From a virus (Duplodnaviria; Heunggongvirae; Uroviricota; Caudoviricetes), in IMG/VR virus record IMGVR_UViG_2778261501_000004, positions 1 to 21,272 of that record: 21,272 nt of DNA; one strand, 5' to 3'. A program made the translations under genes and the position numbers. Below the pieces are notes generated by a model. That model saw only the letters and a list, made by a program, of their open reading frames with translations, did no database searches and was not told the DNA's origin. Positions 1-17,334 of this stretch are shown piece by piece (position 1 is the stretch's first letter; each line of letters begins with the position of its first letter).

Positions 1-981
1 TTATAACGTCACTCCGCCTTTTAGTGGATTCAGAGCGACGGCGTTCTGCAGGTAGTCAGGCGCAAGGTGCGCATAGGTCATTGTCTGCTGAATGCTCGCA
101 TGCCCCAGAATCTGTTGCAGTGCAATTATGTTGCCCCCATTCATCATGAAATGGCTTGCGAATGTATGCCGCAGAATGTGGGTTGCCTGATTGGGAGGTA
201 TATCAGGTTTCACTCTGCGTAAAATCCCGCAAAACTTCTCATAATCTACCTTGAACAATTTGGCGCTGGCCTCCTCTTTAACTTTTTTCTCCAGTTCCTC
301 AGAAATCGGCACTGTTCGCTTTTTACCGTTTTTGGTTTTCAGGAAGGTAACCCTGCAACTTGTAATCTGTGCTGGTTTTAGCGTGGCAACTTCCGTCCAT
401 CTTCCTCCAGTGCTCAGACATAAAAGCGCGACAAGTAAGTCATCACCAGTCAAAACATTTAGCAGTTTTTCGATTTCTGCTTTTTCCAGGAACGTCATTT
501 CAGGGTTAGCCTCCGTCAGTGGCGGCAGTCCGTGAATTGGGTGTTGCCCGGAAAATTCATCCAATTGAATTAATTTTGTGAACATGCCGGATAATCGGTA
601 CATGTCGCGGTTTATCGTTGCAGCACTGATGCCATCACGTAGTCGCATGGAGCGATAATCCATCAAAGCCCTTTTGTTCATCCGGCTCACTGGTATATCA
701 CCTATGCCGCTGATGGTTTTGAGCAGATGATTAAACTCTTTTGTCCCATGCTCGTGGTTTTGCCCGTGGTATTTCCACCAGATGTCGAGCAATTCTGTCA
801 AAGTTCGGCGGTCTGCTCGCTGGCCTCCCCATTCTTTCTGACTGGCATTGGCGATTGTGTATCGCTCAAATGCTAGTGCTTCAGCTTTTCTTTCAAATTT
901 CCTGCGGATGCGTTTTCCGTCGCGACCGCGAGGTCTAATGTCCACTTCATAGCGACCATCATCGAGCTTCTTAATTGCCAT
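1..981 (-). CDS. int: Tyrosine integrase, P2 Int family (326 aa)
   Basis: Start is taken at ATG 981 (MAIKKLDDGRYEVDIRP..., the P2 Int N-terminus as I recall it), not at the ORF-track start 1011. C-terminal catalytic motifs are HILRHTFASH and LGHASIQQTMTYAHL (R/HxxR/Y). The stop TAA is at 1-3. Confidence 0.93.
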   Translation of the reverse strand: MAIKKLDDGRYEVDIRPRGRDGKRIRRKFERKAEALAFERYTIANASQKEWGGQRADRRTLTELLDIWWKYHGQNHEHGTKEFNHLLKTISGIGDIPVSRMNKRALMDYRSMRLRDGISAATINRDMYRLSGMFTKLIQLDEFSGQHPIHGLPPLTEANPEMTFLEKAEIEKLLNVLTGDDLLVALLCLSTGGRWTEVATLKPAQITSCRVTFLKTKNGKKRTVPISEELEKKVKEEASAKLFKVDYEKFCGILRRVKPDIPPNQATHILRHTFASHFMMNGGNIIALQQILGHASIQQTMTYAHLAPDYLQNAVALNPLKGGVTL

Positions 982-1050
982 AAGAAAGCCCTCCGGCGCT
1001 GTATTCACCATCTTGGTGGCAAATGGTGAAAATGTAATTTTTATATAGAG

Positions 1051-1344
1051 TTAGCCAATCCTTTTCGCGGAGTGGTCGGATTCTGTTGACTCTGGCCCAA
1101 TGTGCGCGAGAGCCGGTGCGATTTGTCCCGCTTCCGGCGCTGTTTTATCTGTCATGAGCCATAGTGTGTATTTTTGGAACTGAGGTGCATTGGTGACCTG
1201 CAACACAACTTGGATGCCAGGGTCTTGATGGCCTCCTTCGTAATTCTTTAGCGTTCCTAACGCTATACCGCTGATTTCACTGAATTTTGCTTGAGTTAGC
1301 CCTTCCGATTGTCTTATTACTCTTAATTTCTGTGCGATATTCAT
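1051..1344 (-). CDS. C: Immunity repressor, P2 C-type (97 aa, HTH)
   Basis: Start is at ATG 1344 (MNIAQKLRVIRQSEGLTQAKFSEISGIALGTLKNYEGG, an XRE-type HTH). The C-terminal half (QFQKYTLWLMT...APEAGQIAPALAH) resembles P2 C. The longer 158-aa ORF would run across the early promoter. Confidence 0.85.
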   Translation of the reverse strand: MNIAQKLRVIRQSEGLTQAKFSEISGIALGTLKNYEGGHQDPGIQVVLQVTNAPQFQKYTLWLMTDKTAPEAGQIAPALAHIGPESTESDHSAKRIG

Positions 1345-1479
1345 TTGACATAGTCCTGACTTAATGACTATATTCCCCGAAAAGGTCATTAATCCAGAAC
1401 CTTTTCGGGCGTGAGTCCAGCGCCGCTTAAACGGTTCCAAGCGGTTTTTAAGGGGCTGGATCCTATGAGGGTAACATAG
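1345..1479. promoter_or_regulatory. Lysis/lysogeny switch region (Pe rightward, Pc leftward)
   Basis: Pe candidate is TTGACA (1345-1350), an 18-nt spacer, then TATATT (1369-1374). An 8-bp inverted repeat, TTAATGAC (1361-1368) and GTCATTAA (1386-1393), brackets the -10. The position is equivalent to the P2 Pe/Pc switch. The Pc hexamers are not clearly identifiable. Confidence 0.5.
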
Positions 1480-1752
1480 ATGGAAGTTAATGATTATGTG
1501 ATTAAGTACCCGCTTGATGCGGTACATGCGGAAAAGTTTGCAGATTTATTGGGTAAACCAAAAACCGCAGTTACAGAAATGATAAAGGCTAACAAGCTAC
1601 CGGTTATCGAGCTTCGAGATCCAAATAAGCCGAAGGCCCGCGCCGGTGAGAAATGGGTTTTCATTCCAGAGTTTAATCGCGCTGTACGTGAGGCGTTTTA
1701 TAACCGACCGGTTGAACAGCGTGATGCATGGCTTTTGTGGATGGGGTTGTGA
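1480..1752 (+). CDS. cox: Cox-type excisionase / early repressor of Pc (90 aa)
   Basis: It is the first gene of the rightward early operon. The sequence (KLPVIELRDPNKPKARAGEKWVFIPEFN...RDAWLLWMGL) parallels P2 Cox (KLPVIDMTDP...GRAGEYWVYLP...RDGWLMWLGL, recalled). A GAGGG Shine-Dalgarno (SD) sequence lies upstream. Confidence 0.85.
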   Translation: MEVNDYVIKYPLDAVHAEKFADLLGKPKTAVTEMIKANKLPVIELRDPNKPKARAGEKWVFIPEFNRAVREAFYNRPVEQRDAWLLWMGL

Positions 1753-1754
1753 TT

Positions 1755-1925
1755 ATGAATGAGCCGCGTTGTATTGCTCAGTTACTGCGTAACGAAAGCC
1801 CCAGGGCGATTGACTTCACCATCACCCACGGGAAGGGACGCAAGGGAATCATTATCCGCACCAAAAAACAGAGTCCGTTAAAAAAGGCTCTGACCTTTCT
1901 GAAAAGCCGGAGGGTATGGAAATGA
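1755..1925 (+). CDS. Small hypothetical protein at the P2 orf78 position (56 aa)
   Basis: The ATG at 1755 comes immediately after the cox stop (1750-1752). The gene sits between cox and B as in P2. No recognisable motif. Confidence 0.5.
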   Translation: MNEPRCIAQLLRNESPRAIDFTITHGKGRKGIIIRTKKQSPLKKALTFLKSRRVWK

Positions 1926-2422
1926 CAGTGATGACGCTCAATCTCGTTGAAAAACAGCCAGCAACTATGCGCCGGATAATTGGTAAGCATCTGGCCGTCC
2001 CTCGCTGGCAGGAGACATGTGATTATTATAATCAGATGATGGAACGCGAACGGCTAACGGTTTGCTTTCATGCGCAGTTAAAACAGCGTCACGCAACGAT
2101 GCGTTTTGAAGAAATGAATGACGTCGAACGTGAACGGCTGGTTTGTGCAATTGATGAATTGCGTGGGGCATTCTCAAAACGCCGTCAGGTTGGCGCAAGT
2201 GAGTATGCATATATTAGTTTTTTAACAGTCAGTCAGCGTCGCACTTTATTTATGCACGCACGACTGACAGAAAAAGAATTTAACCAGCCATACTGGCGAA
2301 TTAATGAAGAATCATGTTACTGGCGTGATGCTTTATTCCGTGCGTTACGTGAATTATTCAGTCTGTTTGAGTATGCACCGACAATTCTGACGTCGGTAAA
2401 ACCAGAGCAATATCTGCATTAA
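1922..2422 (+). CDS. B: Replication protein B (helicase-loader type), 166 aa
   Basis: The sequence MTVMTLNLVEKQPA...TSVKPEQYLH matches my recollection of P2 gpB. GGAGGG (1909-1914) is better spaced for ATG 1922 than for the upstream in-frame ATG 1916. Confidence 0.85.
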   Translation: MTVMTLNLVEKQPATMRRIIGKHLAVPRWQETCDYYNQMMERERLTVCFHAQLKQRHATMRFEEMNDVERERLVCAIDELRGAFSKRRQVGASEYAYISFLTVSQRRTLFMHARLTEKEFNQPYWRINEESCYWRDALFRALRELFSLFEYAPTILTSVKPEQYLH

Positions 2423-2486
2423 ATAATTAACCAGAGTTTTTAACGCACTTAATCGTGCGGGGGCTTCTTTTTGCCTGGAGAAAGTC

Positions 2487-2711
2487 ATGCATACAGTTTC
2501 TGAAAACAAGTGCGGTAAATACGCATTACTGCTGCAACAGGCCAGAGCCGAAGCACAGGCCGACGCAGCGACACGCTTTTCTTCTCATCTTGACGCCATG
2601 ATTCGCCATATCACAAAGGCGGAGTTATCCCGCGTGGAGATAGTCGAGCTGCTCAGTCAGGAGTCGGAAAAATTTCACAATATCGGATTGTCTCGCGGGG
2701 AGGTGCTTTGA
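2487..2711 (+). CDS. Hypothetical early protein (P2 orf80 position, 74 aa)
   Basis: SD GGAGAAAG lies upstream. The stop overlaps the next start (ATGA-type coupling at 2708-2711). Assigned by synteny. Confidence 0.6.
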
Positions 2712-3010
2712 TGTCCTGTTCTAATTCAGTTGTATTACTGAATAACGCCTTAAAAATCGCCGTTATGAAAAATGGCGATTTATCTCTTATTCAACTTTGC
2801 CTTGATAAAGAAAAACGCGACATAACTGAATCTGTTATCGCGATTTATCAGAATGAATTAAACCTCCTGTCTGATGTGGTCAATTTACTTGTTAAACGCG
2901 CTGTATTCCACAAGCAAATTTCCTCAGTGGATGAACTGACAAAATTAACGACAGAACTTGCCAGTTATTGCGCTGATGTATCCAGGAAACTTAACGATAA
3001 AAGGAGCTGA
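2708..3010 (+). CDS. Hypothetical early protein (P2 orf81 position, 100 aa)
   Basis: Coupled to its neighbours and assigned by synteny. No motif recognised. Confidence 0.6.
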
Positions 3011-3012
3011 TA

Positions 3013-3237
3013 ATGCCGGACAACGTAGATTTTATTCAGGAACAACAGACTGAATTACTGGAGCGTCAGATTAACGCGGCAAGGGTAAAGCATTGCGGTG
3101 TTTCTGCGCTGGTTTGCGAAGAGTGTGACGCGCCAATACCTGCTGCCCGTCGTGCGGCTTATCCGTCAGCCACGCGTTGTGTTTCCTGCCAGTCAGTCTT
3201 TGAAGCAAAAAACAAACATTACCGGAGAACGGCATGA
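3013..3237 (+). CDS. TraR/DksA-type C4 zinc-finger protein (P2 orf82 position, 74 aa)
   Basis: CEECDAPIPAARR...TRCVSCQ gives a CxxC-N17-CxxC pattern typical of the TraR/DksA family. SD AAGGAG lies upstream. Confidence 0.75.
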   Translation: MPDNVDFIQEQQTELLERQINAARVKHCGVSALVCEECDAPIPAARRAAYPSATRCVSCQSVFEAKNKHYRRTA

Positions 3238-3509
3238 GTATTCGTATTGAAATTGGCGAACGTTATGTCGTTACCAGTGACAGCTTTCAGTTTATTCTCC
3301 ACGAGAAAAAGAGAGCGGAAAGCGGTAAAAACGCCGGTCAGGAATGGCTGTCGGTGGTTGGTTATTATCCGAAATTAAGCCAGCTCGTTTCCGGCCTGAT
3401 GCATCACGATATTCTGACCGGAAGCGCAAAGTCTTTTGCTGATTTAAACGCGCAGGTTGAGCAACTCAGCAGGCGTTGTTCAGAGGCTTTTGGCTCATAT
3501 GGCCGTTAA
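3234..3509 (+). CDS. Hypothetical early protein (P2 orf83 position, 91 aa)
   Basis: ATGA overlap with the preceding gene. The 3' end overlaps the start of A. Assigned by synteny. Confidence 0.6.
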   Translation: MSIRIEIGERYVVTSDSFQFILHEKKRAESGKNAGQEWLSVVGYYPKLSQLVSGLMHHDILTGSAKSFADLNAQVEQLSRRCSEAFGSYGR

Positions 3510-5784
3510 AGCCTCCGGGCGTTTTGTCCCTCCGTCAGCATTTGCCGCAGGCACCGGTAAGGCGTTTACCGGTGCTTATGCATGGAACGCGCCACGCGAG
3601 GCTGTCGGGCGCGAAAGACCCCTTACACGTGACGAGATGCGTCAGGTGCAAGGTGTTTTATCCACGATTAACCGCCTGCCTTACTTTTTGCGCTCGCTGT
3701 TTACTTCACGCTATGACTACATCCGGCGCAATAAAAGCCCGGTGCACGGGTTTTATTTCCTCACATCCACTTTTCAGCGTCGTTTATGGCCGCGCATTGA
3801 GCGTGTGAATCAGCGCCATGAAATGAACACCGACGCGTCGTTGCTGTTTCTGGCAGAGCGCGACCAGTATGCGCGCCTGCCGGGGATGAATGACAAGGAG
3901 CTGAAAAAGTTTGCTGCCCGTATCTCATCGCAGCTTTTCATGATGTATGAGGAACTCTGCGATGCCTGGGTTGATGCACATGGCGAAAAAGAATCGCTGT
4001 TTACGGATGAGGCGCAGGCTCACCTCTATGGTCATGTTGCTGGCGCTGCGCGTGCTTTCAATATTTCCCCGCTTTACTGGAAAAAATACCGTAAAGGGCA
4101 GATGACCACGAGGCAGGCATATTCTGCCATTGCCCGCCTGTTTAACGATGAGTGGTGGACTCATCAGCTTAAAGGCCAGCGTATGCGCTGGCATGAGGCG
4201 TTACTGATTGCTGTCGGGGAGGTCAATAAAGACCGTTCTCCTTATGCCAGTAAACATGCCATTCGTGATGTGCGTGCGCGCCGCCAGGCAAATCTGGAAT
4301 TTCTTAAATCGTGTGACCTTGAAAACAAGGAAACCGGCGAGCGCATCGACCTTATCAGTAAGGTGATGGGCAGTATTTCTAATCCTGAAATTCGCCGGAT
4401 GGAGCTGATGAACACCATTGCCGGTATTGAGCGTTACGCCGCCGCAGAGGGTGATGTGGGGATGTTTATCACGCTGACCGCGCCGTCAAAGTATCACCCG
4501 ACACGTCAGGTCAGAAAAGGCGAAAGTAAAACCGTTCAGCTTAATCACGGCTGGAACGATGAGGCATTTAATCCAAAGGATGCGCAGCGTTATCTCTGCC
4601 GCATCTGGAGCCTGATGCGCACGGCATTCAAGGATAATGATTTACAGGTCTACGGTTTGCGTGTCGTCGAGCCACACCACGACGGAACGCCGCACTGGCA
4701 TATGATGCTTTTTTGTAATCCACGCCAGCGTAACCAGATTATCGAAATCATGCGTCGCTACGCGCTCAAAGAGGATGGAGACGAAAGAGGAGCTGCGCGA
4801 AACCGTTTTCAGGCAAAACACCTTAACCGGGGCGGTGCTGCGGGATATATCGCGAAATACATTTCAAAAAACATCGACGGCTATGCACTGGATGGTCAGC
4901 TCGATAACGACACCGGCAGGCCGCTGAAAGACACTGCAGCGGCTGTTACCGCATGGGCGTCAACGTGGCGCATCCCGCAATTTAAAACGGTTGGCCTGCC
5001 GACAATGGGGGCTTACCGTGAACTACGCAAATTGCCGCGCGGCGTCAGCATTGCTGATGAGTTTGACGAGCGCGTCGAGGCTGCACGCGCCGCCGCAGAC
5101 AGTGGTGATTTTGCGTTGTATATCAGCGCGCAGGGTGGGGCAAATGTCCCGCGCGATTGTCAGACTGTCAGGGTTGCCCGTAGCCCGTCGGATGACGTTA
5201 ACGAGTACGAGGAAGAAGTCGAGAGAGTGGTCGGCATTTACGCGCCGCATCTCGGCGCGCGTCATATTCATATCACCAGAACGACGGACTGGCGCATTGT
5301 TCCGAAAGTGCCGGTCGTTGAGCCTTTGACTTTAAAAAGCGGCATCGCCGCGCCTCGGAGTCCTGTCAATAACTGTGGAAAGCTTACCGGCGGTGATACT
5401 TCGTTACCGGCTCCCACACCTTCTGAGCACGTCGCAGCAGTGCTTAATCTGGTTGATGACGGTGTTATCGAATGGAATGACCCGGAGGTCGTGAGGGCGC
5501 TCAGGAGCGCATTAAAATACGGCCTGAGAACCTCAAACCGTCAGCAAAGAAACGGAAGCCCGTTAAAACCGCATGAAATTGCACCATCGGCCAGACTGAC
5601 CCGGTCGGAAAGAATGCAAATTACCCGTATCCGCGTTGACCTTGCTCATAACGGTATCAGGCCGCAGCGATGGGAGCTTGAGGCGCTGGCGCGTGGCGCG
5701 ACCGTAAATTATGACGGGAAAAAATTCACTTATCCGGTCGCTGATGAGTGGCCGGGATTCTCAACAGTAATGGAGTGGAAATGA
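3499..5784 (+). CDS. A: Rolling-circle replication initiator gpA (761 aa, HUH endonuclease)
   Basis: Start is at ATG 3499 (MAVKASGRFVPP...), giving the 761 aa of P2 gpA. The HUH motif is PHWHMMLF and the two-tyrosine motif is YIAKYISK. The upstream 14 codons of the ORF-track call overlap orf83. Confidence 0.95.
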   Translation: MAVKASGRFVPPSAFAAGTGKAFTGAYAWNAPREAVGRERPLTRDEMRQVQGVLSTINRLPYFLRSLFTSRYDYIRRNKSPVHGFYFLTSTFQRRLWPRIERVNQRHEMNTDASLLFLAERDQYARLPGMNDKELKKFAARISSQLFMMYEELCDAWVDAHGEKESLFTDEAQAHLYGHVAGAARAFNISPLYWKKYRKGQMTTRQAYSAIARLFNDEWWTHQLKGQRMRWHEALLIAVGEVNKDRSPYASKHAIRDVRARRQANLEFLKSCDLENKETGERIDLISKVMGSISNPEIRRMELMNTIAGIERYAAAEGDVGMFITLTAPSKYHPTRQVRKGESKTVQLNHGWNDEAFNPKDAQRYLCRIWSLMRTAFKDNDLQVYGLRVVEPHHDGTPHWHMMLFCNPRQRNQIIEIMRRYALKEDGDERGAARNRFQAKHLNRGGAAGYIAKYISKNIDGYALDGQLDNDTGRPLKDTAAAVTAWASTWRIPQFKTVGLPTMGAYRELRKLPRGVSIADEFDERVEAARAAADSGDFALYISAQGGANVPRDCQTVRVARSPSDDVNEYEEEVERVVGIYAPHLGARHIHITRTTDWRIVPKVPVVEPLTLKSGIAAPRSPVNNCGKLTGGDTSLPAPTPSEHVAAVLNLVDDGVIEWNDPEVVRALRSALKYGLRTSNRQQRNGSPLKPHEIAPSARLTRSERMQITRIRVDLAHNGIRPQRWELEALARGATVNYDGKKFTYPVADEWPGFSTVMEWK

Positions 5785-6227
5785 TGGCAAAAATTCACGA
5801 GGTAAAGCTGCACGCCAAATATTTTGACCTTGTGCTGGAAGGAAAGAAACGCGCAGAGTTTCGGAAAAATGACCGTAATTATGAGCGCGGGGACACGTTG
5901 ATTTTGCATGAATGGGTACAGGGTGTGTATACGGGGCGAAAGGTTGAAGCCCGGATAACAGATGTTACTGACCTGTCAGACTGGCTGGAAGATTATGTCT
6001 TGCTAAGTATTGAGCGGCTTAATACAGGCGCATATGAGATTGTGAACTGGAAAGAACTTAGTGAGCGTGGTCTGGTATTCAGAATTAATCATGAAATTAT
6101 GCATCAGCTCGGCCTTGCTGTTATGTATGAGCCGGAGACGGGGCTGTCTGGCGGGGCAGTGGTTACTGCGGATGGGATATGGAACTATTCAGATGAACAG
6201 GTGGAGCGTACAAAGCAAAACGGGTGA
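5781..6227 (+). CDS. ASCH/DUF3850-like protein with a C-terminal extension (about 148 aa)
   Basis: The N-terminus HEVKLHAKYFDLVLEGKKRAEFRKNDRNYERGDTLILHEW fits the ASCH-like DUF3850 pattern as I recall it. The start (5781 or 5784) overlaps the A stop (5782-5784). This is the P2 orf91 position. Confidence 0.6.
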   Translation: MMAKIHEVKLHAKYFDLVLEGKKRAEFRKNDRNYERGDTLILHEWVQGVYTGRKVEARITDVTDLSDWLEDYVLLSIERLNTGAYEIVNWKELSERGLVFRINHEIMHQLGLAVMYEPETGLSGGAVVTADGIWNYSDEQVERTKQNG

Positions 6228-6442
6228 CTTGGATAATGCACAGAATACCAGGCGAGATACCGCACCATAAAACTAAAAATATCAAGCTGATGGCTATTGT
6301 TCAGCGTTTACAGCGGATTATGGTCAACGAAAATCTGACGCCCGATGAGCTGGTCGGGTGTGCCGAAATAGTCCGGGATAATTACGGGCGGTTTAACCAT
6401 ATCGGTCAATCAAGAGTTACGCCACCACCACGCAGACGATAG
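6224..6442 (+). CDS. Small hypothetical protein (72 aa from GTG 6224, or 68 aa from ATG 6236)
   Basis: GTGA overlap with the preceding stop. No motif recognised. It is the last ORF before the AT-rich island. Confidence 0.35.
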   Translation: MTWIMHRIPGEIPHHKTKNIKLMAIVQRLQRIMVNENLTPDELVGCAEIVRDNYGRFNHIGQSRVTPPPRRR

Positions 6443-6663
6443 AGAACGCCGCCAGTCGTGAAACTTGTTTTCAGGGCTGGCGGGGTTGAACAACGAGCGA
6501 AGCGAGGCGTTAGCTAGGCTTTCTATATTGTTTACAATTAAACCTATCCAGAATTAATTGGAATTCAATTTGATCTTTTTCTCGCTACATATGGCCACAA
6601 GTACCAAAACGTGAGAACATCAAAGCTAGGCGAAATCTAGCTTTTCCATAGGAGTTGTTTCGT

Positions 6664-6690
6664 TATAATACGCGGTCGGTTTTTAGGAGG
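6664..6690 (+). promoter_or_regulatory. Candidate -10 element and ribosome-binding site of the methyltransferase gene
   Basis: TATAAT at 6664-6669. AGGAGG at 6685-6690, 5 nt before ATG 6696. No convincing -35 hexamer. Confidence 0.4.
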
Positions 6691-6695
6691 GGTCA

Positions 6696-7634
6696 ATGCC
6701 AACTGTAGTGTCGCTTTTTTCCGGGTGTGGTGGTTCTGATGCAGGAGTCTTGAAGGCTGGGTTTGATGTTCTAATGGCGAATGACATTTTACCTTACGCT
6801 CGTGATGTGTATTTGGCTAACCATCCAGAAACTGATTATGTTTTGGGTGATGTCTCCACTATTGAATCGTTTCCATCTGCTGAACTGCTGGTTGGTTGCT
6901 ATCCCTGTCAAGGTTTTAGCCAAGGTGGAGTTCGAAAAGCTGATAGAAAAATTAATACGCTATACTTAGAGTTTGCAAGAGCTTTAAGAATAGTTAAGCC
7001 AAAAGCGTTCATTGTTGAAAACGTTTCTGGCATGTTGCGAAGTAACTTTGAACATTTGTTGAAAGATCAGTTCAAGGTTTTCGAAGAGGCTGGTTACAGA
7101 GTTAAATCTAAAATTCTAAATGCTTCTCATTTTGGTGTTGCTCAGGATCGTAAGCGCATTTTTATTGTTGGCATACATGAGAGATTTGGAGTTGATTTTT
7201 CGTTTCCAGTCGCGACTCATGGCGAAGGATTGAAAAGAGTGACTACTATCCGTGATGCGATAGGTTCGTTACCGGAATGGCCTGTTGGAGAGTTTTATGA
7301 TGCCGATTTCCATTGGTATTATTTATCAAGAAATCGCCGTCAGGACTGGGATCAAATCTCAAAAACCATAGTTGCTAATCCAAGGCATATGCCTTTACAT
7401 CCAATTAGTCCAACTCTTATAAAGTTAGGTCCAGATAAATGGCAATTTACATCAAATGAACGTGCACGGCGTTTTAGTTTTCGTGAGGCTGCTTATCTTC
7501 AAGGATTTAGTAATTTAGTTTTTCCTGAAACAGAGCGAGCATCCATGAATATGAAATATACAGTTGTCGGAAACGCCGTACCGCCCCCTTTATTCGAAGC
7601 GGTAGCGCGTTCATTACCTGATATTTGGGATTAA
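6696..7634 (+). CDS. DNA (cytosine-5)-methyltransferase, 312 aa, complete motif set
   Basis: Motif I LFSGCGG, motif IV PCQGFS (PCQ encoded at 6903-6911), motif VI ENV, motif VIII QDRKRIF, motif IX RRFSFREAAYLQGF, motif X GNAVPP. A short variable region of about 100 aa lies between motifs VIII and IX. Confidence 0.92.
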   Translation: MPTVVSLFSGCGGSDAGVLKAGFDVLMANDILPYARDVYLANHPETDYVLGDVSTIESFPSAELLVGCYPCQGFSQGGVRKADRKINTLYLEFARALRIVKPKAFIVENVSGMLRSNFEHLLKDQFKVFEEAGYRVKSKILNASHFGVAQDRKRIFIVGIHERFGVDFSFPVATHGEGLKRVTTIRDAIGSLPEWPVGEFYDADFHWYYLSRNRRQDWDQISKTIVANPRHMPLHPISPTLIKLGPDKWQFTSNERARRFSFREAAYLQGFSNLVFPETERASMNMKYTVVGNAVPPPLFEAVARSLPDIWD

Positions 7635-8560
7635 CTCAACACATAATCCATAGCCACTAAGTCATCAACAAACGTTAGATTGTCTTGGTGGTTTATCTGT
7701 GGATATTTTTTAGTCAGATTTACTAGTCTAAGTCTATCAACAAATATTGCAGCACCAAAATCACTCCTGTGAGCCCAGTCGCGGTTATGCCATCTTAAAT
7801 CTTGTGGAAGAAAATAATATGTTGACCATGGATGTAAGACAGGAAGCAAATTCCACAATTTAGCCGGTGTGGCCTCAAGTTGTTTTGCTACCCATTCAGT
7901 TTTTGAACATCCACATTGAGCAAGAGCAAGAGGTATAGACTCACGATTATCTCCCATATCATGCCAAGCGAGTATATCAATTCCTCCATCTCCCCTGTCA
8001 TTTGGTTTGAAATCTTCAATTGAAAAATTAGCTTTACATCTGAAATCTTGTGCTATTTTAGTTAACTTATCAAAGAGTAAGCCAGTGTAGTGACCTGAAT
8101 TACCTGCGCTAGCCCAACAGTGTTTAACTGTTGCTCCTTCAGGCATGAGGGCTTGAAATATGGGATAGCTTATTTTCTCAAATGCACTTGTAAATATGTC
8201 ACGGTGACTATTTTCTATATATTTTATATTTGCACAGGCTAAGAGTGCTATGTATAGTTTTTCATTTTGATTGTAATCAGCAATATTATGCTTTCTTAAG
8301 AATAATGTGTCTCTGTCATCAGAAAAATAAAAGGGGTAATCATCACCGAAAAGGCTAATTCTTGTGTCAATGAATGTCGCTGCAAAATTCCATTTATCGT
8401 CAGAATACCCGCGTGACTTTGGATTTGCTTGAGACCTAAAGAGGCTTGCTAGATCTCCTCTACTAAAGCATTTGTCTGTATTTACTGTAGCCCATAACTC
8501 TAAATAGTCGCCCCATAAATATGGCTCGTTATCGGGTAATGAGTCCATGTGAAAAATCAT
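7631..8560 (-). CDS. Hypothetical protein with an Mrr-like / PD-(D/E)xK-like motif; putative nuclease (309 aa)
   Basis: RGDGGIDILAW...LALAQCGCSK (codons 189-220, nt 7901-7996) resembles the Mrr-cat signature GDGGID...QxK, but with extra residues in the Q..K element. SD GAGGAAG lies upstream. The start overlaps the upstream stop (TAATG). The function is an inference. Confidence 0.6.
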   Translation of the reverse strand: MIFHMDSLPDNEPYLWGDYLELWATVNTDKCFSRGDLASLFRSQANPKSRGYSDDKWNFAATFIDTRISLFGDDYPFYFSDDRDTLFLRKHNIADYNQNEKLYIALLACANIKYIENSHRDIFTSAFEKISYPIFQALMPEGATVKHCWASAGNSGHYTGLLFDKLTKIAQDFRCKANFSIEDFKPNDRGDGGIDILAWHDMGDNRESIPLALAQCGCSKTEWVAKQLEATPAKLWNLLPVLHPWSTYYFLPQDLRWHNRDWAHRSDFGAAIFVDRLRLVNLTKKYPQINHQDNLTFVDDLVAMDYVLS

Positions 8561-9639
8561 TATTCATCTTCCTCACGGATGCTTTCAATTTGTTTTTTAA
8601 TTTTACGCGCTATAGATAATATTTCACTCGAACGATATTCGTGATTTTCTGTGAAAGAGTGCGTGTTGAGAAGCATATCCCAAACAACTCTTAGTCGAGA
8701 TTCTGCTTGGTCTAGAGCTTGATCCAAAGCCTCTTCATGACCATTTGTATATAAATAGGCTTCTTCAATGTTTTTAGACTTTATGAGGTTATCTATTGCT
8801 GCTTCATTGGCAACTATTGTTGAAAGATTTTTGATCTTGCGACTTTCACCAATGATAGTATCACCCTGTTGATCTCTAACAAAGAACCAAGCAAAAAGCT
8901 TCTCAAGGTTTTCCTCTTTCAGGTTTTTAGCAGATAAATCTTTTCTATCATCTAAGCCTAACCAGTCTGTAATGTTAGTATATCCAAGAGCTGTTGTTAT
9001 GTAGGAAAAATCGACATCATTCTCACTCATATGCAAATTATAGAAGTTTTTATCAGCAGCGGTTTCATATAATTTGAGTGAAGTTAATAAAAGGCCGACG
9101 TAATAAGATTTACTGCCAATTTCTTTAGCTAATGACTTTAAAAGAGATTCTTTGTCTGCACCTTTGTAGAAAGTTTCACTAAGCTCCTTAAGATACTTAG
9201 CTTTAGAAAGTGCATCCCATTCTTTCACACCAGTAATGTGTCTATATCCGATATAACGTAACACATCTTCACGTCTTGTGTAGACGAGACAAGGTAATTT
9301 AGTCGGTTTATAAGTAGCATCGTCCTGAATTAGTTGAATGCTTTTTTCTTTTCTTTTAGGTGGTAAAAGTTCGCTATTGAGCAACTTTACGGCAGCAAGG
9401 CGACGGTTACCCTCAACTACAACATATTTTTTCCCGGAACTAACCACTAAAAGAGGTTCTCCGGGAAAGTAATCTTGTTCCCCTATGGACAGCATCAAAT
9501 CTTGTACACTTTCGTCATCAAGCATTTCTTCAATGACGGCATTTTCAGATCCAGCCCTATCGTTTAACCGATAGAAACGTGGGTTTTCAGGATCAAACTC
9601 TAGATCTTCCGTGTTTATGTATTTGATTTCGTTGCTCAT
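8560..9639 (-). CDS. ParB/Srx N-terminal-domain protein (359 aa)
   Basis: LEFDPENPRF plus VVVEGNRRLAAVKLL (GNRR encoded at 9400-9411) matches the ParB-N / sulfiredoxin-fold signature. The remaining ~240 aa are helical-looking with no motif I recognise. There is no obvious SD before ATG 9639. Confidence 0.8.
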   Translation of the reverse strand: MSNEIKYINTEDLEFDPENPRFYRLNDRAGSENAVIEEMLDDESVQDLMLSIGEQDYFPGEPLLVVSSGKKYVVVEGNRRLAAVKLLNSELLPPKRKEKSIQLIQDDATYKPTKLPCLVYTRREDVLRYIGYRHITGVKEWDALSKAKYLKELSETFYKGADKESLLKSLAKEIGSKSYYVGLLLTSLKLYETAADKNFYNLHMSENDVDFSYITTALGYTNITDWLGLDDRKDLSAKNLKEENLEKLFAWFFVRDQQGDTIIGESRKIKNLSTIVANEAAIDNLIKSKNIEEAYLYTNGHEEALDQALDQAESRLRVVWDMLLNTHSFTENHEYRSSEILSIARKIKKQIESIREEDE

Positions 9640-9830
9640 AATTGTATTCTGCGCAGATATAAGGATGACTTGCTACAGCATAACCTTATGTTTAGCATCT
9701 GTCATTATGATGGCTGCCTTATGCATGATTTTGCATCCATTTTTTATTTTATTTTTTTGGGGGCGCATTAGGCCCGATATGGTTTTTGGAGACGATGCGT
9801 TTGCATCAAAACAGCCCCATGAAGCGGGCG

Positions 9831-9849
9831 GGCGAGGCGGGGAAAGCAC
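9831..9849. other. cos cohesive-end sequence (P2 19-nt 5' overhang)
   Basis: GGCGAGGCGGGGAAAGCAC is identical to the P2 cohesive end as I recall it. It sits downstream of Q, exactly as in P2. Confidence 0.8.
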
Positions 9850-9990
9850 TGCGCGCTGGCAGTAGTGCTGATTTTATTTTTTCAGCGTCTGAGCGCGTCG
9901 TGATGGCGTTTAGATTGTGTGCCGGGGCGTTGGTTTGTCTGCGGGCTATTTTGCGCGGAGGTGAGCGTGTGAGGGCGTGATGGCGGGGTG

Positions 9991-10013
9991 TAAAAAAGCC
10001 GCCCGCAGGCGGC
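9991..10013 (-). terminator. Rho-independent terminator downstream of Q
   Basis: Stem GCCGCC (9998-10003) and GGCGGC (10008-10013) with loop CGCA. On the minus strand this is followed by a T6 run (A-run 9992-9997 on the plus strand). Confidence 0.65.
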
Positions 10014-10018
10014 GATGT

Positions 10019-11053
10019 TCAGCCGTTGTCAGTGTCCAGTGAGTAGTTTTTAAAGCGGATGACCTCCTGACCGAGCCAGCCGTTTATCTCGCGGATCCTG
10101 TCCTGTAACGGGATAAGCTCATTGCGGACAAAGACCTTTGCCACTTTCTCAATATCACCCAGCGACCCGACGTTCTCCGGCTTGCCGCCCATCAACTGAA
10201 AGGGGATGCGGTGCGCGTCCAGCAGGTCAGCGGCGCTGGCTTTTTTGATATTAAAAAAATCGTCCTTCGTTGCCACTTCACTGAGCGGGATAATTTTTAT
10301 GCCGTCGGCTTTCCCCTGTGGGGCATAGAGAAACAGATTTTTAAAGTTATTGCGGCCTTTCGACTTAACCATGTTTTCGCGAAGCATTTCGATATCGTTG
10401 CGATCCTGCACGGCATCGGTGACGTACATGATGTATCCGGCATGTGCGCCATTTTCGTAATACTTGCGGCGGAACAGCGTGGCCGACTCATTCAGCCAGG
10501 CAGAATTAAGGGCGCTCAGATATTCCGGCAGGCCGTACAACTCCTGATTGATATCCGGCTCCAGCAGGTGAAACACGGAGCCGGGCGTGAAGGCTGTCGG
10601 CTCGTTGAAGGACGGCACCCACCAGTAAACATCCTCCTCCACGCCACGGCGGGTATATTTTGCCGGTGAGGTTTCCAGTCTGATGACCTTACCGGTGGTG
10701 CTGTAACGCTTTTCCAGAAACGCATTACCGAACACCAGAAAATCCAGCACAAAGCGGCTGAAATCCTGCTGGGAAAGCCACGGATGCGGGATAAATGTCG
10801 AGGCCAGAATATTACGTTTGACGTAAATCGGTGAGCTGTGATGCACGGCAGCACGCAGGCTTTTTGCCAGACCGGTAAAGCTGACCGGTGGCTCATACCA
10901 TCTGCCGTTACTGATGCACTCGACGTAATCCAGAATGTCACGGCGGTCGAGTACCGGCACCGGCTCACCAAAGGTGAATGCCTCCATTTTCGGGGCGCTG
11001 GCGGTCATTGTTTTCACCGCTGGCTGCGGTGTTTTCCCTTTTTTCTTGCTCAT
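10019..11053 (-). CDS. Q: Portal protein gpQ (344 aa)
   Basis: Length and position match P2 Q. ATGA overlap with the P stop at 11053. Confidence 0.93.
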   Translation of the reverse strand: MSKKKGKTPQPAVKTMTASAPKMEAFTFGEPVPVLDRRDILDYVECISNGRWYEPPVSFTGLAKSLRAAVHHSSPIYVKRNILASTFIPHPWLSQQDFSRFVLDFLVFGNAFLEKRYSTTGKVIRLETSPAKYTRRGVEEDVYWWVPSFNEPTAFTPGSVFHLLEPDINQELYGLPEYLSALNSAWLNESATLFRRKYYENGAHAGYIMYVTDAVQDRNDIEMLRENMVKSKGRNNFKNLFLYAPQGKADGIKIIPLSEVATKDDFFNIKKASAADLLDAHRIPFQLMGGKPENVGSLGDIEKVAKVFVRNELIPLQDRIREINGWLGQEVIRFKNYSLDTDNG

Positions 11054-12825
11054 CAGTAAAACTCCAGAATGGTGGATGTCAGCGGGGTGCTGATACCGGC
11101 GGTGAGTGGCTCATTTAACAGGGCGTGCATGGTCGCCCAGGCGAGGTCGGCGTGGCTGGCTTCCTCGCTGCGGCTGGCCTCATAGGTGGCGCTGCGTCCG
11201 CTGCTGGTCATGGTCTTGCGGATAGCCATAAACGAGCTGGTGATGTCGGTGGCGCTGACGTCATATTCCAGACAGCCACGGCGGATGACGTCTTTTGCCT
11301 TGAGCACCATTGCGGTTTTCATTTCTGGTGTGTAGCGGATATCGCGCGCGGCGGGATAGAACGAGCGCACGAGCTGGAACACGCCGACACCGAGGCCGGT
11401 GGCATCAATACCGATGTATTCGACGTTATATTTTTCGGTGAGTTTGCGGATGGATTCCGCCTGGGTGGCAAAGTCCATGCCTTTCCACTGGTGACGCTCA
11501 AGTATTCTGAATTTGCCACCGGCCACCACCGGCGGTGCCAGCACCACACATCCGGCACTGTCGCCACGGTGTGACGGGTCGTAACCAATCCATACCGGAC
11601 GGGAGCCGAACGGATTCGCGGCAAACGGCGCATAGTCTTCCCATTCTTCCAGCGTGTCGACCATGCAGCGTTGCAGCTCCTCGAACGGGAACACCGACGC
11701 CTTGTCGTCAACAAATTCACACATGAACAGGTTTTTAAAATCGTCGGCGCTGTTTTCGCGTTTGAGCTGCTCAATGTCGAACAGCGTGCAGCCACCTTTC
11801 AGGGCGTCCTCAATGGTGACAATCTGTCGCCACTGGCCGTCCGCACAGAGAAGCCCACCGGCAAGGGCGTTATGACTGACGTCGATTTCCACGCGTTCGG
11901 CGGCGCTGGCGCGTCCCCGGTTATACAGTTCACCCGACCAGAACGGGTAGGCGTCGTGCGCCAGCGTGGACGGGGTGGAGAAATAGGTCGAACGCAGGTG
12001 ACTCTGTGAGGCCATACCTGATGCCACCTTACGCAGTACCTGAAAATTCGGGATCCAGAAAATCTCGTCGACGTACAGGTCGCCGTTATGGCTCTGCGCG
12101 GTGTTGGAGTTGGTGCCGAGAAAAATCAGTTTTGCGCCGTTATTGCCCAGGACAATCGGGTCACCGGTCAGGTCAACGTCAACCAGACGGGCAAAGGCGA
12201 TGATGTATTCGCGGAACACATACGCCTGCGTTTTACTGGCCGACAGAAAAATCTGGTTATGACCGGTTTTCAGGGCGCGCAGCAGCGCCTCGCGGGAAAA
12301 ATAAAATGTCGCGCCAATCTGGCGGGATTTCAGGATATCGCGGATGCGGTGCTCAAGCCCGGCGCGATACCAGTGCAACTGATAGTCGAAAGACTGCTCA
12401 AAGAAAATCTGCTCCAGCTTTTCGATGGCCTCGTCACTGAAAAAATTCTTTTTCGGTTTGCGCCGCCCGCCTTTGTTGCGGTTAGCGACGTTCGGATTAA
12501 GGTCTGCCTCGTTGCCGGTCTGGCTGTAGCGATTTACCCGTGCCAGTCGTTCAATCTGGCGTCCCAGCAGGTCAATTTCCTTGAAGTCACCGCCGGTTTT
12601 CTGCGGTTTGATGATGAGCTGGGTCAGCCGCGCTTCCAGGCTCATTTCGACACGGCTGATGGGGGCAACGCTGTCCCAGCCGTCGCGCTGTTTCCAGCTC
12701 TGCACCGTCGGGCGTTTCATCTGCAACATGGCGGCAATCTGCGGCACGGAAAACCCCTGCCAGTACAGCAGCGCCGCCTGACGACGCGGGTCGTGTAAAA
12801 GAGTGGTGTCTGTGGTGATGGTCAT
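11053..12825 (-). CDS. P: Terminase large (ATPase) subunit gpP (590 aa)
   Basis: Start is at ATG 12825 (MTITTDTTLLHDPRRQ...), giving the P2 length of 590 aa. Terminase Walker-A-like LKSRQIGAT. The ORF-track start 12876 adds 17 unsupported codons. Confidence 0.93.
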   Translation of the reverse strand: MTITTDTTLLHDPRRQAALLYWQGFSVPQIAAMLQMKRPTVQSWKQRDGWDSVAPISRVEMSLEARLTQLIIKPQKTGGDFKEIDLLGRQIERLARVNRYSQTGNEADLNPNVANRNKGGRRKPKKNFFSDEAIEKLEQIFFEQSFDYQLHWYRAGLEHRIRDILKSRQIGATFYFSREALLRALKTGHNQIFLSASKTQAYVFREYIIAFARLVDVDLTGDPIVLGNNGAKLIFLGTNSNTAQSHNGDLYVDEIFWIPNFQVLRKVASGMASQSHLRSTYFSTPSTLAHDAYPFWSGELYNRGRASAAERVEIDVSHNALAGGLLCADGQWRQIVTIEDALKGGCTLFDIEQLKRENSADDFKNLFMCEFVDDKASVFPFEELQRCMVDTLEEWEDYAPFAANPFGSRPVWIGYDPSHRGDSAGCVVLAPPVVAGGKFRILERHQWKGMDFATQAESIRKLTEKYNVEYIGIDATGLGVGVFQLVRSFYPAARDIRYTPEMKTAMVLKAKDVIRRGCLEYDVSATDITSSFMAIRKTMTSSGRSATYEASRSEEASHADLAWATMHALLNEPLTAGISTPLTSTILEFY

Positions 12826-12998
12826 GAATACCTCGCCGTGATGAATACACGGCAAGGCTACTGAGTCGCGTCCCACGATTCGCTAAGGTGCTGTTGTGTC
12901 AGTGATAAGCCATCCGGGACTGATGGCGGAGGATGCGCATCGTCGGGAAACTGATGCCGACATGTGACTCCTCTAATCACTATTCAGGACTCCTGACA
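12826..12998. promoter_or_regulatory. Divergent late promoter region (P2 PP / PO equivalent, Ogr-dependent)
   Basis: Intergenic region between the divergent P and O genes, as in P2. I could not find an exact TGT-N12-ACA activator box by eye, so no hexamers are called. Confidence 0.45.
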
Positions 12999-13853
12999 AT
13001 GGCAAAAAAAGTCTCAAAATTCTTTCGTATCGGCGTTGAGGGTGACACCTGTGACGGGCGTGTCATCAGTGCGCAGGATATTCAGGAAATGGCCGAAACC
13101 TTTGACCCGCGTGTCTATGGTTGCCGTATTAACCTGGAACATCTGCGCGGCATCCTGCCTGACGGTATTTTTAAGCGTTATGGCGATGTGGCCGAACTGA
13201 AGGCCGAAAAGATTGACGATGATTCGGCGCTGAAAGGCAAATGGGCGCTGTTTGCGAAAATCACCCCGACCGATGACCTTATCGCGATGAACAAGGCCGC
13301 GCAGAAGGTTTATACCTCAATGGAAATTCAGCCGAACTTTGCCAACACCGGCAAATGTTATCTGGTGGGACTGGCCGTCACCGATGACCCGGCAAGCCTC
13401 GGTACGGAATACCTGGAATTCTGCCGCACGGCAAAACACAACCCCCTGAACCGCTTCAAATTAAGCCCTGAAAACCTGATTTCAGTGGCAACGCCCGTTG
13501 AGCTGGAATTTGAAGACCTGCCTGAAACCGTGTTCACCGCCCTGACCGAAAAGGTGAAATCCATTTTTGGCCGCAAACAGGCCAGCGATGACGCCCGTCT
13601 GAATGACGTGCATGAAGCGGTGACCGCTGTCGCTGAGCATGTGCAGGAAAAGCTGAGTGCCACTGAGCAGCGCCTCGCTGAGATGGAAACCGCCTTTTCC
13701 GCACTTAAGCAGGAGGTGACTGACAGGGCGGATGAAACCAGCCAGGCATTCACCCGCCTGAAAAACAGTCTCGACCACACCGAAAGTCTGACCCAGCAGC
13801 GCCGCAGCAAGGCCACCGGCGGTGGCGGTGACGCCCTGATGACGAACTGCTGA
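12999..13853 (+). CDS. O: Capsid scaffold/protease gpO (284 aa)
   Basis: Start is at ATG 12999 (MAKKVSKFFRIGVEGDTCDGR...), giving the P2 length of 284 aa. The C-terminal half is coiled-coil-like. Confidence 0.9.
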   Translation: MAKKVSKFFRIGVEGDTCDGRVISAQDIQEMAETFDPRVYGCRINLEHLRGILPDGIFKRYGDVAELKAEKIDDDSALKGKWALFAKITPTDDLIAMNKAAQKVYTSMEIQPNFANTGKCYLVGLAVTDDPASLGTEYLEFCRTAKHNPLNRFKLSPENLISVATPVELEFEDLPETVFTALTEKVKSIFGRKQASDDARLNDVHEAVTAVAEHVQEKLSATEQRLAEMETAFSALKQEVTDRADETSQAFTRLKNSLDHTESLTQQRRSKATGGGGDALMTNC

Positions 13854-13911
13854 CCGGCGTCAGTCAGTCCGGGAAAACCTTCACGATTAACCCTTAATTT
13901 CAGGAAAAACT

Positions 13912-14985
13912 ATGCGCCAGGAAACCCGCTTTAAATTTAATGCCTACCTGTCCCGTGTTGCCGAACTGAACGGCATCGCCGCCGGTGATGTGTCGAAAAA
14001 ATTCACCGTTGAACCGTCGGTCACCCAGACCCTGATGAACACCATGCAGGAGTCCTCTGATTTTCTGACCCGCATCAACATTGTGCCGGTCAACGAAATG
14101 AAAGGGGAAAAAATTGGTATCGGTGTCACCGGCTCCATCGCCAGCACCACCGACACCGCCGGTGGCACCGAGCGTCAGCCGAAGGACTTCTCGAAGCTGG
14201 CGTCTAACAAGTACGAATGCGACCAGATTAACTTCGATTTTTATATCCGCTACAAAACGCTTGACCTGTGGGCGCGTTATCAGGATTTCCAGCTCCGTAT
14301 CCGTAACGCCATTATCAAACGCCAGTCCCTTGATTTCATTATGGCCGGTTTTAACGGCGTGAAGCGTGCAGAAACCTCTGACCGCAGCAGCCATCCGATG
14401 CTGCAGGATGTGGCGGTCGGCTGGCTGCAGAAATACCGCAATGAAGCCCCGGCGCGTGTGATGAGTAAGGTCACTGACGAGGAAGGCCGCACCACCTCTG
14501 AGGTTATCCGCGTGGGTAAGGGCGGTGATTATGCCAGCCTTGATGCACTGGTGATGGATGCGACCAACAACCTGATTGAGCCGTGGTATCAGGAAGACCC
14601 TGACCTTGTGGTGATTGTGGGGCGTCAGTTACTGGCGGACAAGTATTTCCCCATCGTTAACAAGGAGCAGGACAACAGCGAAATGCTGGCCGCTGACGTC
14701 ATCATCAGCCAGAAACGCATCGGTAACCTGCCAGCGGTACGCGTCCCGTACTTCCCGGCGGATGCGATGCTCATCACGAAGCTGGAAAACCTGTCCATCT
14801 ACTACATGGATGACAGCCATCGCCGCGTGATTGAGGAAAACCCGAAACTCGACCGCGTGGAGAACTACGAGTCAATGAACATTGATTACGTGGTGGAAGA
14901 CTACGCCGCCGGTTGTCTGGTGGAAAAAATTAAGGTCGGTGATTTCTCCACACCGGCTAAAGCGACCGCAGAGCCGGGAGCGTAA
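13912..14985 (+). CDS. N: Major capsid protein gpN (357 aa)
   Basis: Length and position are as P2 N. SD AGGAAAAA lies upstream. Confidence 0.93.
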   Translation: MRQETRFKFNAYLSRVAELNGIAAGDVSKKFTVEPSVTQTLMNTMQESSDFLTRINIVPVNEMKGEKIGIGVTGSIASTTDTAGGTERQPKDFSKLASNKYECDQINFDFYIRYKTLDLWARYQDFQLRIRNAIIKRQSLDFIMAGFNGVKRAETSDRSSHPMLQDVAVGWLQKYRNEAPARVMSKVTDEEGRTTSEVIRVGKGGDYASLDALVMDATNNLIEPWYQEDPDLVVIVGRQLLADKYFPIVNKEQDNSEMLAADVIISQKRIGNLPAVRVPYFPADAMLITKLENLSIYYMDDSHRRVIEENPKLDRVENYESMNIDYVVEDYAAGCLVEKIKVGDFSTPAKATAEPGA

Positions 14986-14988
14986 CCG

Positions 14989-15726: not shown

Positions 15727-15825
15727 CAACCGAATGCGCCCCGCGCCAGGGCGGCACGCCGGTCAGTGAGGGTGAATCACCTGACACAGCACCGGCGTCC
15801 ACCGCCCGACTTTTCAGAGGTAGTC

Positions 15826-16538: not shown

Positions 16539-16541
16539 CGC

Positions 16542-17320: not shown

Positions 17321-17334
17321 ACGGAGTAAACACC

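Follow-up and report, generated by a model that had tools for sequence, protein, structure and literature searches.

The DNA analysed here is a 21,272-nucleotide stretch of IMG/VR virus record IMGVR_UViG_2778261501_000004 (this whole stretch is referred to as the window), which is a P2-like Escherichia coli prophage. Between the last backbone open reading frame (ORF) of the early operon and cos lies approximately 3.3 kb of cargo, and the GC content drops from about 50–60% in the flanks to 36–41% over roughly positions 6500–9500. The cargo carries a gene for a C5-cytosine methyltransferase (MTase) and, convergent to it, a ParB/KorB-like gene (gene A) followed by a gene for a predicted nuclease (gene B) (Table 1). 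The cargo site is the interval from gpA and the orf91-position gene to cos and the portal gene, which is occupied by old and tin in phage P2. The P2 interval from the replication endonuclease to the portal gene was described as a defence hotspot in which unrelated cargo is stacked (Vassallo et al., PMC9519451), and the same site is given as a defence hotspot in PMC9122126, as cited in PMC9519451. The three-gene cassette is lysogenic-conversion cargo of this old/tin hotspot. The original prediction recognized neither this setting nor the nature of the two operon products, a ParB/KorB-like NTP-binding HTH protein and a predicted PD-(D/E)xK-fold nuclease.

The MTase is a C5 enzyme, as the original prediction had it, and is full length. 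PF00145 covers residues 3–307 of 312 (204.9 bits, E = 2.9e-60), TIGR00675 scores 187 bits against a cut-off of 100.65, and motifs I through X are complete, with FSGCGG, PCQGFS, ENV, QDRKR and GNAVPP legible in the translation. M.HaeIII (1dct) aligns over residues 4–307 (E = 3e-46), target recognition domain (TRD) included, and HaeIII R225, R227 and R243, which we take to be DNA-contact residues of M.HaeIII, are conserved. A short recognition site had been proposed from the compactness of the variable region. The approximately 100 amino acids between motifs VIII and IX do align with the M.HaeIII TRD, and a short, HaeIII-like (GGCC-like) site is plausible but unproven; few bacterial 5-methylcytosine (m5C) MTases have solved structures, and related specificities are possible. 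Motif I begins at residue 4, leaving no N-terminal helix–turn–helix (HTH) extension, which makes autoregulation of the SsoII or EcoRII kind unlikely.

Gene A encodes a ParB/KorB-like protein with predicted, intact NTP-binding boxes and a predicted ParB-type HTH. Its N-domain is of the ParB/Srx kind and carries box I (FDPENPRF) and box II (EGNRRL); the protein also has the motif GYRHITGxKxW, the HTH (LAKEIGSKSYYVGLLL) and a helical C-terminal domain. A family profile aligns EGNRRL with the GERR box of Spo0J, and fold comparison bears out the ParB fold, with KorB, PadC and Spo0J matching best. All of 30 close and 5 distant A sequences keep DxxNPR and EGNRRLAA unchanged, and both boxes, GYRHITGxKxW and the HTH (A..IGS) are invariant even among A variants that are 30% identical overall. 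Like the CTP-dependent clamps ParB, KorB and Noc, A has box I, box II (GxRR) and box III-like motifs with the HTH directly after them, but it differs in its C-terminal domain and in its constant pairing with a nuclease-fold protein and an m5C MTase. It is not a partition-system ParB: it falls below the cut-offs of TIGR00180 (26.7 versus 58.45 bits) and PF02195 (17.4 versus 26.3), and none of the inspected loci lists a gene with a Pfam annotation of ParA type. Members of the ParB-CTPase fold bind CTP, ATP or GTP, and their orphan prophage copies are unexplored (PMC12704722); phage ParB-like proteins encoded beside a DNA-acting enzyme, a T-dioxygenase, work as cognate-specific activators of that enzyme (PNAS 2026, PMC13229309). 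At positions 8558–8562 (TAATG) the stop codon of gene A overlaps the start codon of gene B by 1 nt, and the A-to-B spacing ranges from this overlap to 5 nt in loci in which the longest-ORF call leaves the B start unextended, which suggests that the two genes are translationally coupled.

Nothing in Pfam, NCBIfam, PADLOC or the sequences of the PDB matches the product of gene B, which falls in PHROG 3984, a family with no assigned function. Its superfamily comprises 1,418 clusters at 50% identity (E ≤ 1e-3). The best 150 representatives are all 171–379 amino acids long, all but six of them are stand-alone proteins of 300–379 amino acids, and none of the 150 is an A–B fusion. An AlphaFold model of B (pLDDT 88.4) matches the PD-(D/E)xK restriction nucleases MspJI and NgoMIV (Foldseek against MspJI, E = 4.9e-4, probability 1.00), and the fold prediction has an N-terminal helical, winged-helix-like half and a C-terminal PD-(D/E)xK-fold domain. 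The protein bears the signature E128...GDGGxD195...Q215-C-x-C...W223xxK226...D275-R-x-R278. Among 149 superfamily representatives, E128, D191, D195, Q215, K226, D275, R276 and R278 are each kept in 96–100%, C216 in 92% and C218 in 95%. These residues would fit the D...Q...K variant of the nuclease motif, also used by MspJI, as a putative active site.

Loci were collected by searches from B, from A and by a scan of a genome collection, and their ORFs were scored with A and B profiles and the MTase. In 34 of the 34 loci found via A or B, gene A, a gene B of about 305 amino acids and a convergent HaeIII-like m5C MTase gene occur in the same order, and no intact A–B pair is without an m5C MTase within 4 kb. 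The reverse test started from MTase orthologues that are 74–95% identical, in Klebsiella and relatives, and in all ten places found in this way the trio again lies between gpA and the portal gene. The trio spans Beta- and Gammaproteobacteria, inside and outside prophages, with hosts that include Escherichia, Enterobacter, Serratia, Intestinirhabdus, Methylotenera, Methylomonas, Sulfurimicrobium, Sulfuricella, Gallionella, Dechloromonas, Aquabacterium and Porticoccus. Non-phage chromosomal sites include those of Methylotenera, Sulfurimicrobium and Dechloromonas, and several non-prophage sites adjoin porin, sulfatase, ABC transporter, lipoate-synthesis or toxin–antitoxin genes. Phage Wphi carries the trio under the names mth, orf96 and orf98, and it also occurs in phages vB_EcoM-12474III and Pseudomonas vB_PaeM-D14A. 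Whether the MTase is the partner of the operon or an orphan or anti-restriction enzyme had been left unsettled; conservation of the trio in every locus, in both search directions and at non-phage sites, favours the partner.

Among 5,426 complete E. coli genomes, 141 carry the cassette. The Wphi-type A–B pair is present in 104, and an MTase of at least 99% identity also in 104, which we take to be the same genomes. A further 36 have an MTase with 93% nucleotide identity; in the one inspected (L042) it lies beside a 330-amino-acid gene and a 372-amino-acid ParB gene, the sizes of the pair found in the 12474-type cassette. The window's own variant occurs in one complete E. coli genome, that of strain PSS-08-2. 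A single MTase orthologue accounts for 987 indexed blocks, most of them from Klebsiella and Enterobacter. According to its genome paper, E. coli W lacks hsdMRS, mcrBC and mrr and has Wphi1 at cpxP–fieF, which is also the site of the Wphi-type cassette in locus L002; missing McrBC and Mrr may be a reason that a host tolerates the m5C methylase of the cassette.

Five divergent loci extend the pattern: L010 (Acidovorax), L027 (Variovorax), and L030, L031 and L032, with Hydrogenophaga, a Rhizobium metagenome-assembled genome and Pelomonas included. In Acidovorax, a 273-amino-acid type II restriction endonuclease (REase) gene (L010, 8086–8907; PADLOC REase_II, 8e-18) lies between B and a non-orthologous m5C MTase gene, and vsr is present. 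In Variovorax, a gene for a 1,048-amino-acid type IIG-like N6-MTase/REase (L027, 5912–9058) abuts B with a 4-nt overlap and is followed by an m5C MTase gene and a vsr fragment. The other three, which are Betaproteobacteria-type loci, have the same spacing of about 3.2 kb to a similar MTase, the intervening ORF having been read in Variovorax only. The non-orthologous partner MTases of the divergent loci also align to M.HaeIII across the TRD. The A–B pair docks onto complete restriction–modification (R-M) systems too.

Pairwise identities are 63–98% for the MTase, 30–65% for A and 25–53% for B, with A and B varying in step. Between the Wphi-type and 12474-type cassettes (L002 versus L036 and L042) there are MTases that are 98% identical, but A proteins at 32% and B proteins at 25%, and the similarity breaks at the tail-to-tail junction. 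This pattern implies that the A–B module has been exchanged against a constant MTase, so that one modification enzyme would serve very different A–B pairs. We infer that A and B are a fast-diversifying, co-evolving and probably interacting pair, and that the mark on which they would depend stays fixed. In the Wphi-type cassette, IS5-family insertion sequence (IS) elements interrupt the A–B region in three E. coli genomes, within B in L041 (NZ_CP193883) and at the 5' end of B, between B and A, in L043 (NZ_CP173544), A and the MTase being intact in both, with the same split-hit pattern in the third (H36, NZ_CP196168). Insertions at B with the MTase intact are the order of decay expected if B is the harmful component.

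Table 1 Features of the cargo and its surroundings in the window.
Feature	Position	Strand	Details
gpA replication endonuclease	3457–5784		Early backbone
DUF3850/ASCH protein	5748–6227	+	P2 orf91-position gene
72-amino-acid backbone ORF	6224–6442		Last backbone ORF of the early operon
19-nt inverted repeat	6445–6487		Just past the last early-operon backbone ORF; left boundary of the cargo
MTase promoter and leader	6580–6695	+	−10 TATAAT, 6664–6669; Shine–Dalgarno AGGAGG, 6685–6690; block with TGGCCAC, 6592–6598
C5-MTase gene	6696–7634	+	312 amino acids
Gene B	7631–8560	−	309 amino acids; predicted PD-(D/E)xK-fold nuclease
Terminator-like hairpin	7646–7704, then A + U6 at 7706–7711	+	For the MTase transcript; within the last ~25 codons of gene B
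Gene A	8560–9639	−	359 amino acids; ParB/KorB-like
Candidate A–B operon promoter	9677–9736	−	−35 ATGACA, 9705–9700; −10 TATGCT, 9682–9677; from promoter scan and alignment of six loci
ATGCAnnnTnATGCA repeats	9722–9736	−	Upstream of the A–B promoter
P2-type cos cohesive-end sequence GGCGAGGCGGGGAAAGCAC	9831–9849	+	Right boundary of the hotspot
Portal gene Q	10019–11053	−	Terminase and capsid genes beyond

The inverted repeat at the left edge of the cargo is kept in Wphi-type and 12474-type loci, and GGCGAGGCGGGGAAAGCAC at the right edge of the hotspot is identical to cosL/cosR of NC_001895. The orf91-position gene of the window encodes a DUF3850/ASCH and DUF7415 fusion of 159 amino acids, longer than the version at this position in P2. 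ParB–DUF3850 fusions are enriched in prophages according to a survey of ParB-CTPases (PMC12704722); in the window, the DUF3850 protein is separate from the ParB-like gene A, with 2.3 kb between them.

Taken as a whole, the computational evidence makes it probable that the MTase is the self-marking part of a three-gene, R-M-like defence cassette in the P2 hotspot. In the mechanism that we propose, the MTase would methylate host and prophage DNA at a short GGCC-like motif. Protein A would bind DNA through its HTH as an NTP-gated (possibly CTP-gated) dimer or clamp and recruit, position or license B, which would then cut incoming DNA that lacks the m5C mark. The genes would be expressed as two convergent units, one from a constitutive MTase promoter and the other from the hotspot promoter that drives old and tin in P2. 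A controller (C) protein may be unnecessary in such a system, as A might gate B after translation or repress the operon to which it belongs. A bolder version, which we think less likely than not, is a new class of restriction in which the m5C state of short GGCC-like sites sets the loading or sliding of an NTP-gated A clamp that then licenses B to cut unmethylated invaders, with one MTase serving many rapidly diversifying A–B pairs.

Several observations weigh against this reading. No PADLOC model recognizes B, the canonical lysine at Q215+2 is absent from it, and K226 is a putative substitute. In the five divergent loci, the neighbouring type II or IIG system brings its own m5C MTase, and the MTase there may belong to that system instead. 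Mutations of NTP-binding residues in the 5mYOX-associated ParB had little effect (PMC13229309), and the literature searched yielded no experiment on the cassette proteins.

The tail-to-tail junction bears on how the two units are expressed. The original prediction placed the stop codons of the MTase and gene B in a shared palindrome, and direct reading bears this out: positions 7631–7634 are TTAA, in which two TAA stops share bases. Its further statement that neither intergenic space nor a terminator separates the units holds for the space and is doubtful for the terminator, as a terminator-like hairpin followed by U6 lies inside gene B (Table 1). The hairpin (7646–7711) has a minimum free energy of −33.1 kcal/mol (z = −3.55), and 1 of 200 shuffles folds as well. 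A simple consensus terminator scan found nothing near the junction, this hairpin being missed, and promoter-like sites were no commoner than in shuffled sequence. The 12474-type cassette has a clean 17-bp stem with U6 at the same relative place; the Wphi-type cassette has no such hairpin there. For the A–B transcript, the candidate examined was a GC-rich hairpin about 35–75 nt past the gene B stop (within 7500–7645), inside the 3' end of the MTase gene, which was rejected as a terminator because it has no U-run and its folding is not significant (z = −1.44).

Across 26 related loci, 15 have a 4-nt stop overlap ([TC]TA[AG]; nine CTAA, five TTAA and one CTAG), a further six have a gap of 0–4 nt and five are separated by 18–286 nt. 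Tight tail-to-tail abutment (21 of 26 loci) is therefore a conserved trait of the family, and the TTAA palindrome is incidental, a by-product of two TAA stops where the usual sequence is CTAA. Loss of a shared stop would be difficult, since both proteins would be lengthened by a change in the common TA. The abutting or overlapping stops would reflect compaction and a frozen shared stop, with limited antisense overlap possible. Convergent transcription could give antisense overlap or interference, as the original prediction suggested and as the conserved abutment indirectly supports; in the window, the predicted hairpin would hold MTase read-through to about 75 nt, which weakens this idea.

The absences noted in the original prediction were upheld. 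The non-coding parts of the cargo (6443–6700 and 9640–10018) contain no candidate ORF for a small HTH C protein, the 72-amino-acid ORF beside the cargo has no Pfam match of any kind, HTH included, at E ≤ 0.01, and phmmer with the Vsr of a relative found no Vsr-like ORF anywhere in the window. Elsewhere among the loci, an HTH_3 gene was seen at one Sulfurimicrobium site only (three overlapping records, L004, L005 and L014), and vsr (PF03852) lies beside the MTase at four distinct sites (L004/L014, L013, L021 and L010); L027 and L030 have vsr fragments. The absence of C protein and vsr is typical of the family.

Upstream of the MTase, the promoter region is near-invariant in five enterobacterial cassettes whose flanks differ, and a cGTtAtAAT-like −10 element lies 25–35 nt upstream of the MTase ATG in most distant loci. 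The heptamer TGGCCAC is invariant upstream of this promoter in the five aligned enterobacterial cassettes, and a sixth (L006) has TGGCCGC. We considered it as an autoregulatory GGCC target and rejected this as a family feature: GGCC occurs within 160 nt upstream in 13 of 25 loci, approximately as expected by chance, and TGGCCAC is not kept in more distant loci. On the other side of the cargo, the ATGCAnnnTnATGCA repeat pattern occurs nowhere else in the window (0.02 chance matches expected) and recurs upstream of gene A in five aligned cassettes. The same repeats precede the mapped old–tin transcript starts of P2 (L038, 33440–33480), a phage with unrelated cargo at this site. They probably belong to the hotspot backbone as a promoter or regulatory element, and the A–B operon appears to use the hotspot's resident candidate promoter.

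These features also speak to a more conventional explanation, in which B is the sole REase of a type II system and A, instead of being a restriction subunit, is a KorB-like HTH repressor or activator, co-transcribed with B, that delays or limits the nuclease after entry into a new host. C genes lie upstream of R in C–R operons, and A, an HTH protein, occupies the exact place expected for such a gene, directly upstream of B and apparently translationally coupled to it, with no other controller gene in the window and with conserved repeats upstream of the operon promoter. We nevertheless consider this unlikely. The ATGCA repeats also precede the P2 old–tin promoter, so we rejected them as operators for A and regard them as backbone elements. 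A has 359 amino acids, its NTP-binding boxes are invariant and its conserved C-terminal domain is large, which is far more than a C protein needs; gene A precedes B in all 34 loci; and the two co-diverge as a pair, as expected of physical partners.

A second explanation is that the MTase is an independent orphan or anti-restriction enzyme and that A–B is a methylation-independent module, for abortive infection or as a sensor with its nuclease. Orphan MTases are common on phages, and this one has its own promoter and the opposite orientation; in the five divergent loci the nearest m5C MTase is another one, with its own REase, and unrelated cargo is stacked in the P2 hotspot (PMC9519451). Mere neighbours would be difficult to reconcile with linkage in 44 of 44 places across both search directions and at non-phage sites, with the absence of any intact A–B pair lacking an m5C MTase within 4 kb among the 34 loci, or with fixed convergent abutment. 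Nor would they account for a 98% identical MTase kept with two A–B pairs only 25–32% identical, and IS insertions in or just upstream of B with the MTase intact are the pattern expected of R-M decay. We therefore think this less likely still. A phage module for DNA transactions or epigenetic control, in which a ParB-like protein might, for example, steer a DNA-processing enzyme and a methylase to phage DNA for replication, packaging near cos or gene regulation, is very improbable: the cassette adjoins cos, phages have ParB-like proteins that guide or switch on DNA-modifying enzymes (PMC13229309) and the roles of orphan prophage ParB-fold proteins are unexplained (PMC12704722), but the trio also sits at chromosomal non-phage sites beside toxin–antitoxin genes and vsr, P2 lacks it and has old and tin at the same place, as befits dispensable cargo, the fold of B matches restriction nucleases and the A–B pair diverges fast, as arms-race genes would.

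Returning to the self-marking cassette, we looked for its recognition site through motif depletion, counting motifs in the backbone of the window (1–6442 and 9781–21272) and in P2 (L038), Wphi (L039), L002 and L036. GGCC is mildly low in the backbone, with an observed/expected ratio (O/E) of about 0.6, versus 0.71 (base-composition expectation) in the host chromosome control. GGNCC is depleted approximately 8–10-fold in E. coli P2-like phage backbones (O/E of 0.81 in the host chromosome control): 5 sites were observed in the window versus 41 and 90 expected from Markov and base-composition models, respectively, with 7 versus 71 and 136 in P2 and 9 versus 70 and 144 in Wphi. The depletion is equally strong in P2, which is without the cassette, and absent from an Enterobacter 186-like prophage that carries it, and is therefore not a readout of the specificity of the cassette; it points to long exposure of Peduovirus phages to GGNCC-type restriction. 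Palindrome avoidance was accordingly rejected as a guide to the recognition site. The extra type II REase of Acidovorax, taken up as a clue to MTase specificity, has no match in NCBIfam, Pfam or PDB. As a separate observation, GATC sites are far rarer than expected in the window backbone (14 versus about 70), as well as in P2 (23 versus 119) and Wphi (18 versus 112; base-composition expectations).

Among known systems, type II R-M of the HaeIII type, some members of which carry a C protein, Vsr or both, is closest in outline, sharing a complete HaeIII-like C5-MTase, a linked PD-(D/E)xK-fold gene and convergent, abutting genes. As in classical systems, the MTase gene is strictly linked to that of the predicted nuclease, and the cassette is likewise mobile, low-GC cargo, some of its relatives having vsr. 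The cassette appears to depart from classical type II systems through an obligatory ParB-like partner and a novel nuclease family: a type II endonuclease acts alone, as a homodimer that needs Mg2+ only and no NTP-binding partner, whereas B follows an apparently translationally coupled ParB-like gene with conserved NTP-binding boxes in 34 of 34 loci. The nuclease family is also unmatched in libraries, a C protein is missing, and between cassette variants the identity of the nuclease-pair proteins goes down to 25% versus 98% for the MTase. MspJI-like (type IIM/IV) endonucleases match the catalytic half of B, with D195 and Q215 conserved, but the matches of its N-terminal half are winged-helix-like and not to m5C readers (SRA-like), and the linkage of B to an m5C MTase speaks against m5C-dependent cutting.

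GmrSD, BrxU and SspE have a DUF262 ParB-like NTPase fused to a DUF1524 nuclease, whereas the cassette encodes two separate proteins, its nuclease is predicted to have a PD-(D/E)xK rather than a His-Me/HNH fold, and A retains a canonical ParB HTH. The modification also sets the cassette apart from these systems and from SspABCD–SspE, as it is predicted to be m5C, made by the linked MTase. GmrSD and BrxU attack modified DNA; unlike them, the cassette would spare it.

The best PADLOC match of the N-terminal 150 residues of A is PD-Lambda-5_A (1e-24), from PD-lambda-5, a compacted prophage ‘RM+Abi’ system (Vassallo et al. 2022). However, A covers positions 1–161 of 466 of that profile, the ParB N-domain only; PD-Lambda-5_A models have 428–590 positions, of which A covers the first 160 or so, and the further C-terminal region is not in A. 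B has no PADLOC match, PD-Lambda-5_B included, and the cassette MTase is a separate m5C enzyme. Identity with PD-lambda-5 was rejected on the grounds that A matches in its N-domain only and B not at all. The MTase matches the Druantia type II model DruM2 (350 bits), but A and B match no Druantia model, and this identity was rejected as well, with DruE, DruF and DruG absent and no large helicase ORF in the cargo. The PDC-M38A profile (715 positions) matches A only.

Phage ParB-dependent 5-methylpyrimidine dioxygenases (PMC13229309) offer a parallel in that a ParB-like protein is encoded beside a DNA-acting enzyme in phage DNA-modification neighbourhoods. They differ in that the partner is an Fe/2OG dioxygenase, the ParB has no DNA-binding domain and there is no restriction function. 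With P2 old/tin, the hotspot #1 cargo, the cassette shares its insertion site, the ATGCA-repeat promoter architecture and a prophage-borne lysogenic-conversion role; the proteins are unrelated, and in the P2 record old (annotated as an exonuclease/AAA ATPase) and tin have no methylase annotation. Although the cassette genes entered GenBank with the Wphi genome, literature searches by protein accessions, by Wphi orf96, orf98 and mth, and by ParB-plus-methylase defence found no description of the cassette.

If the clamp-licensing mechanism were true, this would be the first restriction mechanism run by a ParB/KorB-type nucleotide switch, and B would gain a first function for a family of more than 1,400 clusters. 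The defence reading, if correct, would provide a function for the B family, for a large group of ‘orphan’ prophage ParB-fold proteins and for Wphi orf96, orf98 and mth, all of them uninformatively annotated at present, and would add a ParB/KorB-type nucleotide-switch partner to the known restriction mechanisms. A constant MTase with hypervariable effectors would be a clean natural system in which to follow how restriction modules diversify in an arms race. Among clinically relevant Enterobacteriaceae the cassette is common, and it could influence host range in phage therapy, the efficiency of transformation and m5C methylomes.

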